Origin: a virus
Virus genome (UHGV): UHGV-1440165
Direction: 5' to 3' (one strand)
DNA length: 64,000 bases
Position 1 is the stretch's first letter. Every line of letters begins with the position of its first letter. Below, in pieces: positions 11,519-18,090 of this stretch. The notes beneath the pieces were generated by a model. That model was given only the letters and a program-made list of their open reading frames with translations, was not told the DNA's origin and did not search any database. The translations under genes and the position numbers were made by a program.

Positions 11519-12025
11519 TTATAGGGTAACAAGTGATACGGTAAAAACCATCGTCCCGTCAGTTGCCATTTTTCTTGAAACTGGTATGACGCGAGGCTGG
11601 CAGAATATCCATTCTTTCTCCATGGACGCCAAGTCCAGCATATCCATTTCTGATTCATCGCCTTTGTTCACAAATTTTTCTAGAGAACCATAGACATTAA
11701 GCCCCTCCGGGAGTCCGTTTCGATGTTTGTAACATATGCGGGCGACAGCTCTGGTTCCATACGATTTAGAAAATTGTTTGGCCACATGCTTCAGTTCACT
11801 GAAGCTAAGACAAGAATCCCATGTCTGAAACATGTCTCCTCGTTCAAACATCATCTCCAAACGCGCAACGTCCTCTTTAGGCAACCCGCGATAAAGTGTG
11901 GTCATCTGCGGTTCGCGTAATTCTCGCACCAGACCACGGATGGCAGGGGAAACAGTGCCAGGGCGCATGATGTGGGACTTATCATGGACGAGGTAAAATA
12001 AATCTTGAATTTGTTGATCGGTCAT
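11519..12025 (-). CDS. Hypothetical protein; possible ADP-ribosyltransferase-like
   Basis: 168 aa; ATG with GAAGGA RBS; candidate R / S-x-S / E-x-E triad (LYRG, DSCLSFS, EKE) is suggestive only. Confidence 0.35.
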   Translation of the reverse strand: MTDQQIQDLFYLVHDKSHIMRPGTVSPAIRGLVRELREPQMTTLYRGLPKEDVARLEMMFERGDMFQTWDSCLSFSELKHVAKQFSKSYGTRAVARICYKHRNGLPEGLNVYGSLEKFVNKGDESEMDMLDLASMEKEWIFCQPRVIPVSRKMATDGTMVFTVSLVTL

Positions 12026-12375: not shown

Positions 12376-12405
12376 ATAATAGGACATTCTTTAGAGGAAG
12401 TAAAC
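12376..12405 (-). promoter_or_regulatory. Sigma70-type early promoter (-35 GTTTAC, 18-nt spacer, -10 TATTAT)
   Basis: Minus-strand GTTTAC-N18-TATTAT immediately after a terminator hairpin; resembles the T4 early-promoter -35 consensus. Confidence 0.5.
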
Positions 12406-12415
12406 CCCTAAAAGT

Positions 12416-12440
12416 AAAAATCCCCAACAAACGTTGGGGA
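12416..12440 (-). terminator. Intrinsic terminator (TCCCCAAC-loop-GTTGGGGA + T-run)
   Basis: 8-bp GC stem followed on the minus strand by TTTTTA; lies downstream of the 12458..12682 gene. Confidence 0.6.
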
Positions 12441-12457
12441 TTTAATAAAAGTTATGC

Positions 12458-12731: not shown

Positions 12732-12761
12732 ATAATACGTATTTGCCTTATAGAAGTAAAC
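12732..12761 (-). promoter_or_regulatory. Sigma70-type early promoter (second copy of the GTTTAC-N18-TATTAT cassette)
   Basis: Near-identical copy of the 12376..12405 promoter. Confidence 0.5.
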
Positions 12762-12771
12762 CCCTAAAAGT

Positions 12772-12796
12772 AAAAATCCCCAACGTTTGTTGGGGA
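12772..12796 (-). terminator. Intrinsic terminator (second copy, loop inverted)
   Basis: Same TCCCCAAC/GTTGGGGA stem as at 12416..12440 with the loop sequence reverse-complemented; T-run on the minus strand; downstream of the ACP-like gene. Confidence 0.6.
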
Positions 12797-12802
12797 CTTC
12801 TG

Positions 12803-13126
12803 TTATTTGCGCAGGGCAACCACGAATTCAGCGAGTTCACCCATGGTCGGGTCATCGCCTTTACTGCCCAGCCAGCCGTCGTCTATTTCGACCTGAAACT
12901 CTTCTTCTAGTTCCATTACGATTTCGATAGCATCCAGTTCATCGCCGCCGAGGTCTTTCTTGGTGCGGAGGCCAGCCAGTTTGTCCAGGGCGTCTTCGTT
13001 TTGAGATGCCACGTCGTCCAGCAGTTTGCGCTTGTCATCGTCGCGCCACAGATCCATATTCAGATTCTCTGTAGCGTACTGAGCCAGGTGTCGCATCACC
13101 TCAACATATGTCGGTTTACTGCTCAT
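12803..13126 (-). CDS. Acyl carrier protein-like protein lacking the phosphopantetheine-attachment serine
   Basis: 107 aa; DLGGDELDAIEIVMELEEEFQVEIDD closely matches the ACP helix-II region [20 protein letters not shown], but the DSL serine codon is GAA (Glu); ATG with GGAGA RBS. Confidence 0.6.
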   Translation of the reverse strand: MSSKPTYVEVMRHLAQYATENLNMDLWRDDDKRKLLDDVASQNEDALDKLAGLRTKKDLGGDELDAIEIVMELEEEFQVEIDDGWLGSKGDDPTMGELAEFVVALRK

Positions 13127-13144
13127 GTCACTTCTCCCAAAGAA

Positions 13145-13162
13145 GGGCGGGTTGCCCCGCCC
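13145..13162 (-). other. GC-rich hairpin (GGGCGGG-loop-CCCGCCC) between vWA and ACP-like genes
   Basis: 7-bp perfect stem immediately after the vWA stop; terminator-like but weak T-run. Confidence 0.4.
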
Positions 13163-13168
13163 GTTGGA

Positions 13169-15370
13169 TTAGATTTTGATCTCTTTCTCTGCCAGTTCGG
13201 CAGTGACCTTGTACTTCACGCCATCCACTTCAACTTCCATGGTTGACTCTTCCAGGTCGAGGTCGGTGAACCAGCCATGGCCAGCAACGATACCATACAC
13301 CACTTTAGACAGCGTCTTGTTCAGGGCGCGGACTTCAGTGATGGCCGCCTTGGCAGCAGCGTCGATCCAGTTTTCGATCAGCTGTTTCTGTACGGCTTCA
13401 GGCACAGCAGTAATAGCCGGGGACTTCACGAATGCGTCGTATTCTTTCAGTGCATTGGCGATGAACATATCACCCGCATTGAGAGCCTTTTTATCAGCAA
13501 TCTTCTTCTGTACCGCAGCGATGGACGGCAGAGAAGACGCCCCGGCGATCTTAACGTTCAGCTCACGGCTCATGTAGACGTCCGTGGAGTCCTTCAGCTC
13601 GGTCTTCGGTGAGAAGCCATAATCGCGGATACCAACACTAGACAGGTATTCTGCGGCCGCAGCGCCGTACTGAATAGCCAGACCTTTGGCATTACCCTTA
13701 CCAACCAGGGCGTCGCGATAGAACTTCAGTACCTTCTGCTTGCCTTTCAGGGCTTCCAGGCGAACGTTGTCGGCAAAGAACTGTGCAGCACTGATGTTCT
13801 TGACCATCGCACGGTTGACCAGCGGTACGCTTTCCAGGTTCAGAATGAACACTTCCGGACCAACGAACACGTGGACGCCCATTTCGATCAACTTCTGCAC
13901 AACTTCGATATCAGCCTTGAACGGCAGGGTCTTCACATTGATGATGCCGTCTTTGACGATGGTGTAGTTGCGCCACTGGAATGTGTCCAATTCTTCGGGT
14001 AGACCGAACTTCTTCTGAGCGAATTCGGGCACCGCCACAGTTCCATGCTGGATTGTACGCACACTGATGTTCGGGCGCTCAGAGTTATAGACCAGGTCGC
14101 TGATTGAGATCACGCCCAGATCGTTAGCAGGTTCAAACGACGGTGTCCACTCTTCGTGCTCAGCCAGCTTGAGAGCGAGGGCTTTACGCTCTTCTTTGGA
14201 CTTGGCGTTCGCGATTTCTTCCGCCAGCTTGTCTTCGGTATCATCGGCTTTCTGCACAGTACCGCGACCAATGCTCTTGTAGGAGAACATCGGGTGCTTG
14301 GTGGCAACAGACACGCCAGCTTCGGCCAGGTACGTCAGCACATCAACGACAGTGGTCGCATCTTCAGCCGGAACCATATTGTAGTCGATACCGTCCACGC
14401 CGCGCAGCTGATCATCAACGATGGCCTGGGTCAGATCAACTTTGATGTTGGAGTAGTCCTGCTTGGTGAAGCAGTTGCTGTACTGTTTGATGAAGCGGAC
14501 GTCGCCCGTTTTCTTCAGCGCAGCCCACACCAGGTCGGCGTCCATGATGTGTACGCCGTAGAACGCCAGCACGTATGCTGCCTGGATGTCCGTCAGCGCA
14601 TCAAGCTGGTCGATCATGTTAGGGTTGACGACCCACAGCTTCGTGACGCTCTCAGGGATGCTCACGTGGCCGATAGGATGGTCTTCATCCGGCTGTACCG
14701 CCAGCACGGTTGCTACGCCGTTTTCAACGTAGATGGCGTGAGTGTACACCACAGGAACGTCAACACGAACCTTCGGCACCGAGGACTTCAACACGTTTTC
14801 CAGCTCAGTCTGATATTCAGTCTGTCCTTCGGCGAACACGTGAGTCGCGCCGGAACGCTCGGACATCTGGGCCAGGAGTTCGCGGTTACAGTACCAGCCG
14901 TATTCGATAAAGGTGATGTTATCGAAAACAAATGGCAAGGTTTCGGCGACGGCCAGGATTTCATTGGAGCGCCAGCAGTTGTCATAACCATCGGTCATGA
15001 ACGCCAGGTTGTTGACGTAGCCGGGTTTCTTCAGGCTACGCGCAGTATCTACCGCGAGACCCAGGGGTTCGACGAAGCCAGTGCAACCGGATGGTTGCAG
15101 GAAGCGGTCGATCAGTTTGTTCAGCTCGCTCAGGTCAGACGCAGCACTGACCTGGCGGCCAGCGAACACAGTACCAAAGTCGCCACGGGATGAGAAGTAC
15201 AGGAGGCTCACTGTGTCTTCCGGTTTCACCAGGGAAGGCAGGTTCTCCTTCAGGTGCTTACGGACTTCAGGGAGCGCCCGGTACATGGAACCGGAAATGT
15301 CCACAACGATTACATGGTTGGACGGGGCAGCAGTCGCAACCGCATTCTTAAACTCCAGGGATTCAATCAT
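13169..15370 (-). CDS. von Willebrand factor A (vWA) domain protein
   Basis: MIDAS-type motif VVDISGSM near the N-terminus and later TDGYDN; about 733 aa from ATG at 15370 (MIESLEF...). Track start 15433 overlaps a small upstream ORF. Confidence 0.65.
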   Translation of the reverse strand: MIESLEFKNAVATAAPSNHVIVVDISGSMYRALPEVRKHLKENLPSLVKPEDTVSLLYFSSRGDFGTVFAGRQVSAASDLSELNKLIDRFLQPSGCTGFVEPLGLAVDTARSLKKPGYVNNLAFMTDGYDNCWRSNEILAVAETLPFVFDNITFIEYGWYCNRELLAQMSERSGATHVFAEGQTEYQTELENVLKSSVPKVRVDVPVVYTHAIYVENGVATVLAVQPDEDHPIGHVSIPESVTKLWVVNPNMIDQLDALTDIQAAYVLAFYGVHIMDADLVWAALKKTGDVRFIKQYSNCFTKQDYSNIKVDLTQAIVDDQLRGVDGIDYNMVPAEDATTVVDVLTYLAEAGVSVATKHPMFSYKSIGRGTVQKADDTEDKLAEEIANAKSKEERKALALKLAEHEEWTPSFEPANDLGVISISDLVYNSERPNISVRTIQHGTVAVPEFAQKKFGLPEELDTFQWRNYTIVKDGIINVKTLPFKADIEVVQKLIEMGVHVFVGPEVFILNLESVPLVNRAMVKNISAAQFFADNVRLEALKGKQKVLKFYRDALVGKGNAKGLAIQYGAAAAEYLSSVGIRDYGFSPKTELKDSTDVYMSRELNVKIAGASSLPSIAAVQKKIADKKALNAGDMFIANALKEYDAFVKSPAITAVPEAVQKQLIENWIDAAAKAAITEVRALNKTLSKVVYGIVAGHGWFTDLDLEESTMEVEVDGVKYKVTAELAEKEIKI

Positions 15371-15533
15371 CGTTATTGCCTTCTTCAGGGTTGTCATCGG
15401 CCTCACCTTCCGGATTGACCAGCATGTGTTCAACGAATTCGCGATTCAGCTCAATCTGGCTCATCAGCGCATCCGTCGGAGTAAAGCGGCGGTCGAGGTT
15501 ATCGACACCCGCACGTTTAAATGGTTTGGACAT
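15363..15533 (-). CDS. Small hypothetical ORF (56 aa) between NAMPT-like and vWA genes
   Basis: ATG at 15533 with GAGG RBS; its TGA stop overlaps the vWA start (ATGATTGA); acidic C-terminus. Not in ORF track (under 60 aa). Confidence 0.4.
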   Translation of the reverse strand: MSKPFKRAGVDNLDRRFTPTDALMSQIELNREFVEHMLVNPEGEADDNPEEGNNDD

Positions 15534-15574: not shown

Positions 15575-17239
15575 TTAGATTTGTGAGGCCAGTTCTGCCA
15601 CCAGAGGAGCAGCACGAACACGCGCATCTTCCAGAGTCTGAGTGTTGAAGAACTTGCCATCACGGTACACCAGTTGGTGTTGGTTGTCGGCGTCTTGCAC
15701 CTGATCAAAGGTGATGCCGTCAACCAACACTAGTTTACCCTGAGAGTCTTTAATGACTTTAAGGAAACCACGCGCAGACTTTTTAGTCCCGCCTTTGTCG
15801 GTCTTCGGCTCTTTGAAGATCTCGCGGAATTCACCGTTCACCTTACCAGCCGTCGCTTTCACTGCCGTTCCAGTACTGTCACGGGTGTTCATCTGGTAGG
15901 TGTAGGAACCAATACCGAAGACCACGTTAATGGAAGCGAAGTTCCGGCCAGCCAGACGACCAAAGATCTGGTCTTCACGTGCCAATGTGATAGAGTCACC
16001 GTAGATCAGACCGATGTGATCGTCCAACAGGAAGTGGCCAGTCTCAGTTTGAGTACCGCCAAAGATCTCCCACAGGCGCTGAATAGAGCCGACTGCTTCA
16101 GAACGGCTGATGATATTACTGTCGTCTGCCATCAGAGAGTTGATCGTACCTTCGCCTGTGATCAGGTGATAGGTGTTCGTCTCTTCGATGTGGATGACTT
16201 CGGTGCTGCTGGACACGCCGCTGATGTTCAGCATAGCGCGGTCTTTGAACCCCTCGATGCGGTAGCCGCCGACGATGTGAACTGGGTCGCCAGAGTCAGG
16301 GCGGATCACGACTTTGCCGTTGCGTGCCATGATAATGTCTTTCAGGCGAGGGAGATAGTCGTCGATGACCTGCCAATAGTCCCACGCATCCGACACAATG
16401 CTGACGATGCCATCAGGATACACGTCCTGCACCAGGCGACGGAAGGTTTCGAATTCTCCATTCTTCGTACCCATGCACATCACGGCGTGTTCGGTGGCTG
16501 CAACGGAGCCAGCAACGACATAGTCTTCATCGATATCCGCGCCGTAATACTCTTCAACGAAGTCCAGGGCAGGGTTGGTGTCAGTGCCTTTGAAGAACAC
16601 CAGATGGCCAGAACCGGAAGACGCCGCGTCATGCCATCCGCTCATACCACGGAAGGAGAAGTCGTGGCCTTGGTAATCGATGAACCAATGGTCCGGTGAC
16701 ACGCCTGTGGCGATAGCGGCTTTCACCATCAGTGCCTTGTAATGCAGGGCGATGGTGGCGTTCGTCATGGGCTTCCAGATCTCAGAGCTGAACACAGTCT
16801 CCAGATAGTTGGTCAGCCAGTAGAACTCCGGCAAGGTGTTGAACATCACATACACCGGAACGCCATACGGGCACATGGTGCCTTCGGGTAGAGCACGGAC
16901 TTCGATAGGCAGATAACCGAGGTCATGCAGGGCTTCGATATGCTCTGTGCCAACACGACCTGGACCCAGTACTTTGTTCATGCGACGGGCATACTTCTTC
17001 AACACCTTGGCCTTCGGGCGCTGGAAGAACGCTTCGTCAAACAGTTCGTGGAACCAGGTCATGAAACCCTGGATGCCCCAGACCACCACGCCGTTCTTCG
17101 GCAGGTGAGAGTTGAATAATTTGTTGGAACGCGGAGTCCCGTTGGAGAACACCAGCTCACTACCTTCAGGGAACTGATAGATGTGCCCTGATTTGTAGAA
17201 GTCGATTGCATGAATTGGGTCTAAGTGGCGCATGCTCAT
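15575..17239 (-). CDS. nadV: Nicotinamide phosphoribosyltransferase-family protein (NadV/NAMPT-like)
   Basis: 554 aa; NAMPT-type N-terminus with the DFYKSGH motif; ATG start overlaps the stop of the upstream Prs-like gene by 4 nt. Confidence 0.8.
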   Translation of the reverse strand: MSMRHLDPIHAIDFYKSGHIYQFPEGSELVFSNGTPRSNKLFNSHLPKNGVVVWGIQGFMTWFHELFDEAFFQRPKAKVLKKYARRMNKVLGPGRVGTEHIEALHDLGYLPIEVRALPEGTMCPYGVPVYVMFNTLPEFYWLTNYLETVFSSEIWKPMTNATIALHYKALMVKAAIATGVSPDHWFIDYQGHDFSFRGMSGWHDAASSGSGHLVFFKGTDTNPALDFVEEYYGADIDEDYVVAGSVAATEHAVMCMGTKNGEFETFRRLVQDVYPDGIVSIVSDAWDYWQVIDDYLPRLKDIIMARNGKVVIRPDSGDPVHIVGGYRIEGFKDRAMLNISGVSSSTEVIHIEETNTYHLITGEGTINSLMADDSNIISRSEAVGSIQRLWEIFGGTQTETGHFLLDDHIGLIYGDSITLAREDQIFGRLAGRNFASINVVFGIGSYTYQMNTRDSTGTAVKATAGKVNGEFREIFKEPKTDKGGTKKSARGFLKVIKDSQGKLVLVDGITFDQVQDADNQHQLVYRDGKFFNTQTLEDARVRAAPLVAELASQI

Positions 17240-18090
17240 TTTACACGTCCTGTATTTTCAGTTTTGAAAGGAAGACCGTCGGCGGTGATGTTCTCCCACC
17301 AGACAGTGTCGGCATACACAGCATCGTAGATCCCGTCGAAAACAGAGAGACCTTTGCTGAAGATGCCATGGGTAACGAAGAGCGTCATGTGCTTAGGCTT
17401 GTGCTTCTGAAGCTCTTTACCCAGCTCAACAAACGTGCGCCCACCGTCGCAGATATCATCAACCACAACCAGATAGCGGTCTTTGATCAGTTCAGGGTTT
17501 GTAATACTCACCCCAATGATTTCACCAGTCTTGGTGTCACGGTTCTTGTGTCCGTAGACAACAGGAACGCCATCCAATGACAGGCTGAGGGTTTCGGTCT
17601 TCTTCGCCGCGCCGCCGTCAGGGGCTACCAGCACAGCATTGTTCCCACGGATGAACCAGCCCAGATACTGGCGCACGATGTGATCTTGTGGGACCACATG
17701 GACGTTGTTGATCAGGGAAGACACAACATGGCTGTGAGGGTCTTTGATCGCCACGCGGTCAAAGTTCATGTTGTTGATGAACTCAGCCGCCCACTTCACG
17801 GACAGAGGCTCGCCGAAGTCGCAATGGCGGTCCTGGCGAGCATACGGGAAGTAAGGGATATACGCATGGAAGGTAGTCAGACGGTCCACGTTACCCAGGC
17901 CGCGCACGGCGTTTACCAGAAGCGCCAGCTCAATGAAGTCGGCTGATGATTTGATGTGAGCATCAATCACCACGTTCTGGACGTGACCGACAGGGATGCC
18001 AGCCTTTTGGATCTTGATATGTTCCTCACCACCTGGGAAGGTGAAGTGCTTGTAGAACACATCTTGGTCGTTCAATTTCAAACGAAACAT
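17236..18090 (-). CDS. Ribose-phosphate pyrophosphokinase-family protein (Prs-like)
   Basis: 284 aa; type I phosphoribosyltransferase/PRPP-binding motif VVVDDICDGGRT; ATG start with GAGG RBS. Confidence 0.75.
   Translation of the reverse strand: MFRLKLNDQDVFYKHFTFPGGEEHIKIQKAGIPVGHVQNVVIDAHIKSSADFIELALLVNAVRGLGNVDRLTTFHAYIPYFPYARQDRHCDFGEPLSVKWAAEFINNMNFDRVAIKDPHSHVVSSLINNVHVVPQDHIVRQYLGWFIRGNNAVLVAPDGGAAKKTETLSLSLDGVPVVYGHKNRDTKTGEIIGVSITNPELIKDRYLVVVDDICDGGRTFVELGKELQKHKPKHMTLFVTHGIFSKGLSVFDGIYDAVYADTVWWENITADGLPFKTENTGRVK

Follow-up and report, generated by a model that had tools for sequence, protein, structure and literature searches.

The window analyzed here, a 64,000-nucleotide stretch of the virus genome UHGV-1440165, carries on its minus strand (12803..13126) a gene for a 107-amino-acid protein that resembles bacterial acyl carrier protein (ACP) and has glutamate in place of the serine to which 4′-phosphopantetheine is attached. 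The gene family is already known and named "acyl carrier protein." In the homologues aligned, the serine was uniformly replaced by an acidic residue, and ACP homologues with the same replacement were recovered from other viruses and from bacteria. These data suggest, tentatively, that the protein is an ACP-fold mimic of holo-ACP whose carrier function has been permanently lost and which binds the ACP partners of the host.

The window derives from an Ackermannviridae phage with approximately 90% nucleotide identity to the Agtrevirus phages MK-13, ChubbyThor, and SKML-39. The open reading frame (ORF) of the ACP-like gene starts with ATG and is preceded by the Shine-Dalgarno-like ribosome-binding site GGGAGAAG (13131..13138, minus strand). 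Its product is acidic, with an isoelectric point (pI) of 4.27, 27 Asp and Glu residues versus 13 Lys and Arg residues, and a net charge near −14. Homologues were found in 271 phage records, nearly all from phages of enterobacterial hosts and as a single copy each, where they are called either "acyl carrier protein" or hypothetical. The protein matched the 108-position PHROG 4154 "acyl carrier protein" profile over its residues 1 to 107 (E value, 3.9e-57), and its second-best PHROG match was PHROG 5934.

Sequence comparisons identified the 107-amino-acid protein as an ACP homologue, with matches well above chance. The Pfam PP-binding profile (PF00550) matched at 26.5 bits against a gathering cutoff of 20.8 (E value, 7.9e-6). 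A phmmer search of all PDB chains returned ACPs only, the top match being Bacillus subtilis ACP (E value, 4.6e-6), and BLASTP against Escherichia coli AcpP gave 17 of 27 identities (63%) across helix II. In the alignment with B. subtilis ACP, D-E-L of the phage protein lies opposite D-S-L, with the DSL serine at Glu63. The GAA codon for Glu63, at the N terminus of helix II, occupies positions 12938..12940 (minus strand); direct reading of the window confirmed the codons GAT GAA CTG GAT and the peptide DLGGDELDAIEIVMELEEEFQVEIDD at residues 58 to 83. These results bear out the first-pass annotation, made from the sequence and its ORFs, which had described an ACP look-alike that nearly matches helix II and has GAA as the codon of the modified serine.

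Structure prediction, which had been proposed as a check on that description, also gave an ACP fold. The AlphaFold (AF2) model, built from 31 homologues, had a predicted local distance difference test score (pLDDT) of 74.9 and comprised helix I, two extra short helices, helix II (residues 63 to 77), and helix IV (residues 95 to 105). When this model was compared with the PDB by Foldseek, carrier proteins were the only matches, with probabilities of up to 0.98 and template modeling (TM) scores of up to 0.73 on the target; E values of only about 0.1 are in line with the small size of the fold (80 residues). In BFVD, the "ACP" of phage ViI was matched with a TM score of 0.86. The protein has the profile match of PF00550 above threshold, the four-helix fold with the site at the start of helix II, and the acidic recognition helix II, but it lacks the DSL serine, and no genomic association with an AcpS-type phosphopantetheinyl transferase (PPTase) or with acyl-processing enzymes was found in the records covered below.

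The most conserved block of the family is recognition helix II, LGGDELDAIEIVMELEEEF (residues 59 to 77; 12896..12952, minus strand), as defined by homologue alignment, the helix model, and BLASTP with AcpP. Residues D62, L64, D65, E68, M71, E74, E75, E76, and F77 match D35, L37, D38, E41, M44, E47, E48, E49, and F50 of AcpP and are invariant or nearly so, consistent with the earlier proposal that the docking face of ACP is kept. Among 31 homologues with 55 to 95% identity, G60, G61, D62, L64, D65, E68, and E74 were invariant and M71 and E75 nearly so. As in bacterial AcpP, the protein also has a helix IV N-cap threonine. Unlike AcpP, it has Glu (Asp in relatives) in place of Ser36, approximately 27 residues forming two short helices inserted between helices I and II, and an invariant family-specific motif, W85-x-G87-x3-D91-D92-P93-T94 (12845..12874, minus strand), in place of the helix III loop. 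This motif and helix II are the two conserved blocks of the family.

Position 63 was Glu or Asp in 31 of 31 close and 9 of 9 distant aligned homologues and at all 19 paired loci, and was never Ser. Across the 31 close homologues, it was nearly invariant as Glu, with Asp in a few. Kuttervirus copies (relatives of ViI, CBA120, and Det7) read GGDDLD, while those of Agtrevirus, Limestonevirus, and Klebsiella Taipeivirus read GGDELD. Divergent full-length members with 31 to 49% identity, recovered by a profile search of 1.8 billion representatives, all had D-E-L or D-D-L, and the shorter, 90-amino-acid version of Miltonvirus phiMAM1 had D-E-L. The ratio of nonsynonymous to synonymous substitution rates (dN/dS) of the gene was 0.04 to 0.22 in comparison with five homologues. 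By these alignments and ratios, the loss of serine is a family trait under purifying selection and not a lesion.

Since the DSL site lacks serine in the whole family, carriage of acyl chains at the canonical site is impossible, as the first-pass annotation had concluded, and host enzymes have no serine to act on. The machinery for loading and processing was also sought. An AcpS-like gene was not found in any Ackermannviridae record by a search whose query did match an annotated phage acpS and which did not extend to Sfp-type transferases. The annotation of the 49 kb of phage MK-13 that are syntenic includes no gene for fatty acid synthesis (FAS), polyketide synthase (PKS), PPTase, or acyl processing. 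T94 was considered as an alternative attachment site and rejected because Ser-type ACPs have their usual helix IV N-cap threonine at the aligned position.

IMG/VR was scanned with the pattern D[ED]LDx[IV]ExxM. The scan yielded 45 confirmed ACP relatives with D[ED]LD; 33 belong to contigs from outside Ackermannviridae, whose lengths range from 17 to 363 kb. The Ser version of the pattern had at least 385 matches. Thus, the acidic type makes up roughly 10% or less of the viral ACP homologues with that pattern, a count that depends on the pattern used. Most of the acidic-type matches were otherwise canonical ACPs of 76 to 95 amino acids. With the site left out of the comparison, acidic types from outside Ackermannviridae had mostly Ser-type ACPs as their closest relatives below 70% identity. 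This finding suggests that the change from Ser to Glu or Asp arose repeatedly, as judged by nearest-neighbor similarity rather than a supported tree, the signal in some 80 residues being weak.

The state of the site was also surveyed with a pattern that omitted it. In this site-blind scan, which used a six-variant alignment, 56 distinct viral sequences comprised 52 with Ser, 4 with Glu, and none with any other residue. Because the four Glu sequences came from the query alignment itself, the Glu fraction is not unbiased, but the absence of a third state stands. Among the top 148 hits of a profile that favors Glu, the non-Ser states were Glu (17), Asp (13), Thr (3), Gly (2), Phe (2), Ala (1), and Asn (1). 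By the genetic code, Glu or Asp lies two nucleotide changes from any Ser codon. The near absence of the single-step intermediates Ala, Gly, Asn, and Thr suggests that a carboxylate was selected for and that the site did not simply decay.

Most of the cultured phages sampled outside the family retain the serine. GAP32, phiRSL1, P-HM1, fHe-Yen9-04, P018-4, and BCSR5 have Ser at the site, and Pseudomonas jumbo phage Lu11 (gene Lu11_0346), with Asp in the sequence VDDLD, was the sole acidic type among these seven other cultured phages in which the site could be read. In GAP32, phiRSL1, P-HM1, fHe-Yen9-04, and BCSR5, which are large lytic phages, the Ser-type protein annotated "acyl carrier protein" is likewise a small orphan ACP homologue, and its gene often lies among genes of early or nucleotide-metabolism function. 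These proteins retain the DSL serine, on which host AcpS could act, whereas the acidic family of the window and other acidic types (about 10% or less of the pattern-matched viral homologues) cannot be loaded. Both types occur in tandem on the 44.6-kb IMG/VR contig 3300021426_000130 of an uncultured phage, where a Glu-type homologue (ADELD; L026:5896-6153) is followed by a Ser-type homologue (LDSLD; L026:6161-6469).

The genomic surroundings of the phage copies outside Ackermannviridae had little in common. An all-against-all BLAST comparison of the ORFs at nine viral loci revealed no shared neighbor family; a dUTPase-domain protein was encoded upstream at two loci, and a tandem Ser-type ACP was present at one. 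No FAS, PKS, PPTase, ATP-grasp ligase, or other loading enzyme was common to the neighbors of the phage copies. A dedicated phage-encoded enzyme partner was rejected as a general explanation because the nine loci had no consistent neighbor.

Acidic-type ACPs were also detected in bacteria, with 67 loci confirmed in a scan of bacterial genomes. Five actinomycete proteins of approximately 1,190 amino acids, encoded in Streptomyces and Kitasatospora genomes (L260:2623-6222, L247:2668-6219, L261, L269, and L298), combine a trypsin-like peptidase, an nSTAND NTPase (nSTAND NTPase 5), and TPR repeats with a C-terminal ACP domain of the Glu type. From this architecture, they look like conflict-system NTPases with an integrated ACP-like bait or sensor domain. 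Other acidic-type domains were fused to Sel1 repeats, to a zinc ribbon and an EF-Tu domain 2-like region, or to an N-acetylglucosamine (GlcNAc) 2-epimerase-like domain. In addition, a contig binned as Nostoc sp. P2037 (NZ_JBALDL010000044.1; L245:6001-6237) encodes a 78-amino-acid protein that is 91% identical to E. coli AcpP and carries S36E. This copy has AT-rich codons and only 74% nucleotide identity with E. coli acpP, and it adjoins a split DDE transposase; the coding density of this region is low. PADLOC returned no match for the ACP-like protein of the window, for the product of the adjacent vWA-domain gene, or for the bacterial fusion proteins.

Collectively, the intact recognition helix, the obligatory carboxylate, the lack of loading machinery, the recurrent origin, and the modular fusions suggest that the protein acts by binding. 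The protein keeps the acidic surface of helix II by which enzymes and regulators that depend on ACP recognize it, and it has a carboxylate (Glu63, or Asp in Kuttervirus relatives) in the place of the 4′-phosphopantetheine phosphodiester of holo-ACP. Under the holo-ACP mimic reading, which we hold to be plausible though short of probable, this carboxylate would imitate the phosphodiester. The protein would then present a holo-like docking face with neither the arm nor its thiol. Made during infection from a transcription unit that would also hold NAD-salvage-like genes and the vWA gene, it would compete with host apo-, holo-, or acyl-AcpP for ACP-binding host proteins, and an ACP-dependent process would be inhibited or redirected. 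Candidate targets in enterobacteria include PlsB, the FAS II and lipid A acyltransferases, AcpS, AcpH, MukB, and IscS. We infer the phosphate mimicry, the competition with host ACP, the identity of the targets, and the benefit to the phage, and with them the decoy role as a whole.

Precedents exist for an ACP that acts without its arm. E. coli apo-ACP inhibits the glycerol-3-phosphate acyltransferase PlsB and growth (PMC3896788), and apo-AcpP stimulates MukB as much as holo-AcpP does (PMC8602292). An ACP that, like the phage protein, has no prosthetic group can therefore bind and inhibit or activate host proteins; unlike the phage protein, which is genetically fixed as "always apo," those cases involve the host's own unmodified AcpP. 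The mitochondrial ACP (mACP) of Plasmodium falciparum, a characterized ACP that is independent of phosphopantetheine and has Phe in place of the conserved serine, works purely by binding Isd11-Nfs1, and the residue that replaces Ser contributes to the interface; in canonical complexes, Arg6 of Isd11 contacts the phosphate of the 4′-phosphopantetheine (PMC8547962). The same study reported Ser-less ACPs only in apicomplexans and a chromerid (PMC8547962). The phage protein shares with mACP the condition of a Ser-less ACP homologue under selection, but its replacement is acidic rather than hydrophobic Phe (or Cys or Gly, as in Toxoplasma), and it has no LYR-protein context. Moreover, mACP belongs to a eukaryotic organelle and not to a virus, and its partner has coevolved and lost the phosphate-binding Arg. 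The likeness to mACP is a functional analogy only and not one of membership. A replacement that is always acidic predicts partners that still have a phosphate-binding basic residue, i.e., unmodified host ACP clients.

Several observations weigh against the holo-ACP mimic reading. The match to AcpP is confined to helix II, and the protein has a 27-residue insertion and an invariant W/DDPT surface of its own, which could serve a phage-encoded or family-specific partner. ACP is among the most abundant proteins of E. coli (PMC3896788), and a simple competitor would thus need high expression or much higher affinity; the evidence of expression is thin, consisting of a single peptide of the ACP-like protein in the Sajous1 proteome. 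In addition, SpoT does not bind apo-ACP (PMC3896788), and the plausible targets therefore do not include all ACP partners.

A broader form of the proposal, which we regard as possible but doubtful, is that ACP look-alikes with Ser replaced by Glu or Asp form an unrecognized functional class of genetically fixed holo-mimic decoys deployed on both sides of the phage-host conflict. Dozens of uncultured large phages would, along with Lu11 and all Ackermannviridae examined, use them to jam or hijack a host ACP process or an ACP-sensing regulator. In bacteria, the domain would be built into STAND NTPase-peptidase-TPR proteins, where it would serve as bait or sensor.

The gene layout around the ACP-like gene raises a different explanation. 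A vWA-domain gene (733 amino acids, PHROG 2426; 13169..15370, minus strand), which we treat as context and not as a proven partner, lies immediately upstream, and the ACP-like gene begins 42 nucleotides downstream of it on the same strand; the first-pass annotation had placed it right after the vWA gene. The D-x-S-x-S...T...D motif of the metal ion-dependent adhesion site (MIDAS) is intact in the vWA protein; its C-terminal part of approximately 540 amino acids contains no recognizable domain, and a search of PDB sequences with the protein found no informative homologue. Members of the vWA family were found in 501 phage records, among them those of Ackermannviridae, T4-like Straboviridae, Rhizobium phages, and Bacillus phage AR9. 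The start of the vWA gene is overlapped or abutted by an ORF of 56 to 68 amino acids (15363..15533, minus strand, in the window) at the loci of Ackermannviridae type that were examined.

The ACP-like protein could serve a phage-encoded partner as its ligand or adaptor. The vWA protein is the most obvious candidate; the conserved carboxylate at the tip of helix II would complete the coordination of the MIDAS metal, much like the acidic residues of integrin I-domain ligands, and the ACP-like protein would then regulate the vWA protein or be carried by it. In every Aglimvirinae, Cvivirinae, and Taipeivirus genome examined, the two genes lie on the same strand, 37 to 44 nucleotides apart. The pairing persists in three divergent members traced to their contigs, where the ACP-like gene still follows the vWA gene; the ACP-like proteins there have diverged to 31 to 44% identity, and the vWA proteins are still 72 to 78% identical. 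The MIDAS motif is conserved as well as intact, a terminator follows the ACP-like gene while only a weak hairpin precedes it, the vWA and ACP-like proteins are each represented by one peptide in the same Sajous1 proteome, and the invariant W85/DDPT surface could be a partner site. Against this explanation, vWA homologues are found in 501 phage records versus 271 for the ACP-like family, and those at the two Straboviridae loci examined, of RB43 and Vibrio phage vB_VmeM-32, have no adjacent ACP-like gene. In Miltonvirus phiMAM1, three genes separate the vWA gene from the ACP-like gene, and a search of the flanks of nine other viral ACP-like loci with the vWA protein found no vWA neighbor. The vWA protein also evolves much more slowly than the ACP-like protein, with 73 to 78% identity versus 36 to 44% in the same pairs. 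Because gene order in this region is conserved across the whole family, adjacency is weak evidence of partnership. The functional link to vWA hinted at by the first-pass annotation is thus upheld as adjacency but weakened as a partnership, given the vWA homologues that occur without an ACP-like neighbor. On gene order, the pairing is a trait of one phage lineage and not an obligate two-gene module, and the explanation by a phage-encoded partner, with its attractive idea of a MIDAS-carboxylate interaction, is one that we consider unlikely.

The remaining features of the region concern transcription and the genes on either side. Within the 42-nucleotide spacer between the vWA and ACP-like genes lies the G+C-rich hairpin GGGCGGGGCAACCCGCCC with a weak T-tail (13145..13162, minus strand), which may be a partial terminator or an RNA stabilizer. 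An intrinsic terminator hairpin directly follows the ACP-like stop codon (12777..12796, minus strand), indicating that the ACP-like gene ends its transcription unit. This hairpin belongs to a repeated cassette in which the terminator hairpin AAATCCCCAACGTTTGTTGGGGATTT is followed by a sigma-70-like promoter (TTTACT, 17 nucleotides, TATTAT), found at 12732..12796 and 12376..12443 (terminator at 12418..12443) on the minus strand. The cassettes flank small genes downstream of the ACP-like gene, where relatives annotate a repeat_region. Upstream of the vWA and ACP-like genes are overlapping genes for NAMPT-like (554 amino acids) and PRPP-synthetase-like (284 amino acids) proteins (15575..18090, minus strand), which may be a phage NAD+ reconstitution pair of the NARP1 type (Adps/Namat). 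No terminator-like site was found on the minus strand between these two genes and the spacer hairpin (13145..13162). An Alt-like fragment of 168 amino acids, assigned to the "RNA polymerase ADP-ribosylase" family PHROG 832, is encoded three genes downstream of the ACP-like gene (11519..12025, minus strand) and matches only the C-terminal end of the profile (positions 1270 to 1425 of 1480).

A second alternative, which we judge improbable, is that the resemblance to ACP is merely ancestral and that the protein is a generic small acidic protein, serving as a DNA or polyanion mimic or as a chaperone for basic phage proteins; the acidic residue at position 63 would only add charge, and the surfaces for ACP partners would be unused. 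Small acidic DNA-mimic proteins of phages, such as Ocr and Arn, are well known, and the low pI, the net charge, and the fast evolution of the protein outside helix II are in keeping with this idea. However, conservation in the family peaks in the very helix by which ACP is recognized, where partner-contact residues are kept one for one; it is specifically the Ser site alone that was switched to an acidic residue; and the same single-site switch occurs in otherwise canonical phage ACPs of 76 to 85 amino acids, which need no extra charge.

Finally, it is very improbable that the protein is a carrier with other chemistry, in which the Glu or Asp carboxylate attaches a cargo or modification (an amide-linked amine or ADP-ribosylation) or another residue is phosphopantetheinylated: the strict requirement for a carboxylate at a site that does not accept just any residue, the precedent of the amino-group carrier protein LysW for carrier chemistry linked to a C-terminal Glu, and the presence of the Alt-like ADP-ribosyltransferase fragment and the NAD-salvage-like genes within 5 kb on the same strand would fit such a carrier, but neither an ATP-grasp ligase nor any other loading enzyme is common to the neighbors of the phage copies, T4-type Alt and Mod enzymes are Arg specific, T94 is the sole other invariant hydroxyl residue and a normal helix IV N-cap threonine, and no AcpS-type PPTase was found in these phages.

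In hundreds of phage genomes, this gene bears the label "acyl carrier protein" and is classed as an auxiliary metabolic gene. Because the sequence rules out a canonical carrier, that label is misleading for the whole phage family. The searchable literature yielded no report of the Ser-less state or of a decoy role for a phage ACP, nor any natural phage-encoded "always-apo" ACP. A stable, nonmodifiable ACP mimic could serve as a reagent to trap ACP clients, and the Asp-type protein of Lu11 could provide a second experimental system. If the decoy role is correct, the protein would be the first case of a natural viral inhibitor made out of ACP. This role would explain the repeated two-nucleotide switch from Ser to an acidic residue in unrelated phages and in bacterial STAND proteins. 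It would also imply that phages must control some host process that depends on ACP, for example, the synthesis of lipids or lipid A, MukBEF function, iron-sulfur (Fe-S) cluster assembly, or stringent signaling.
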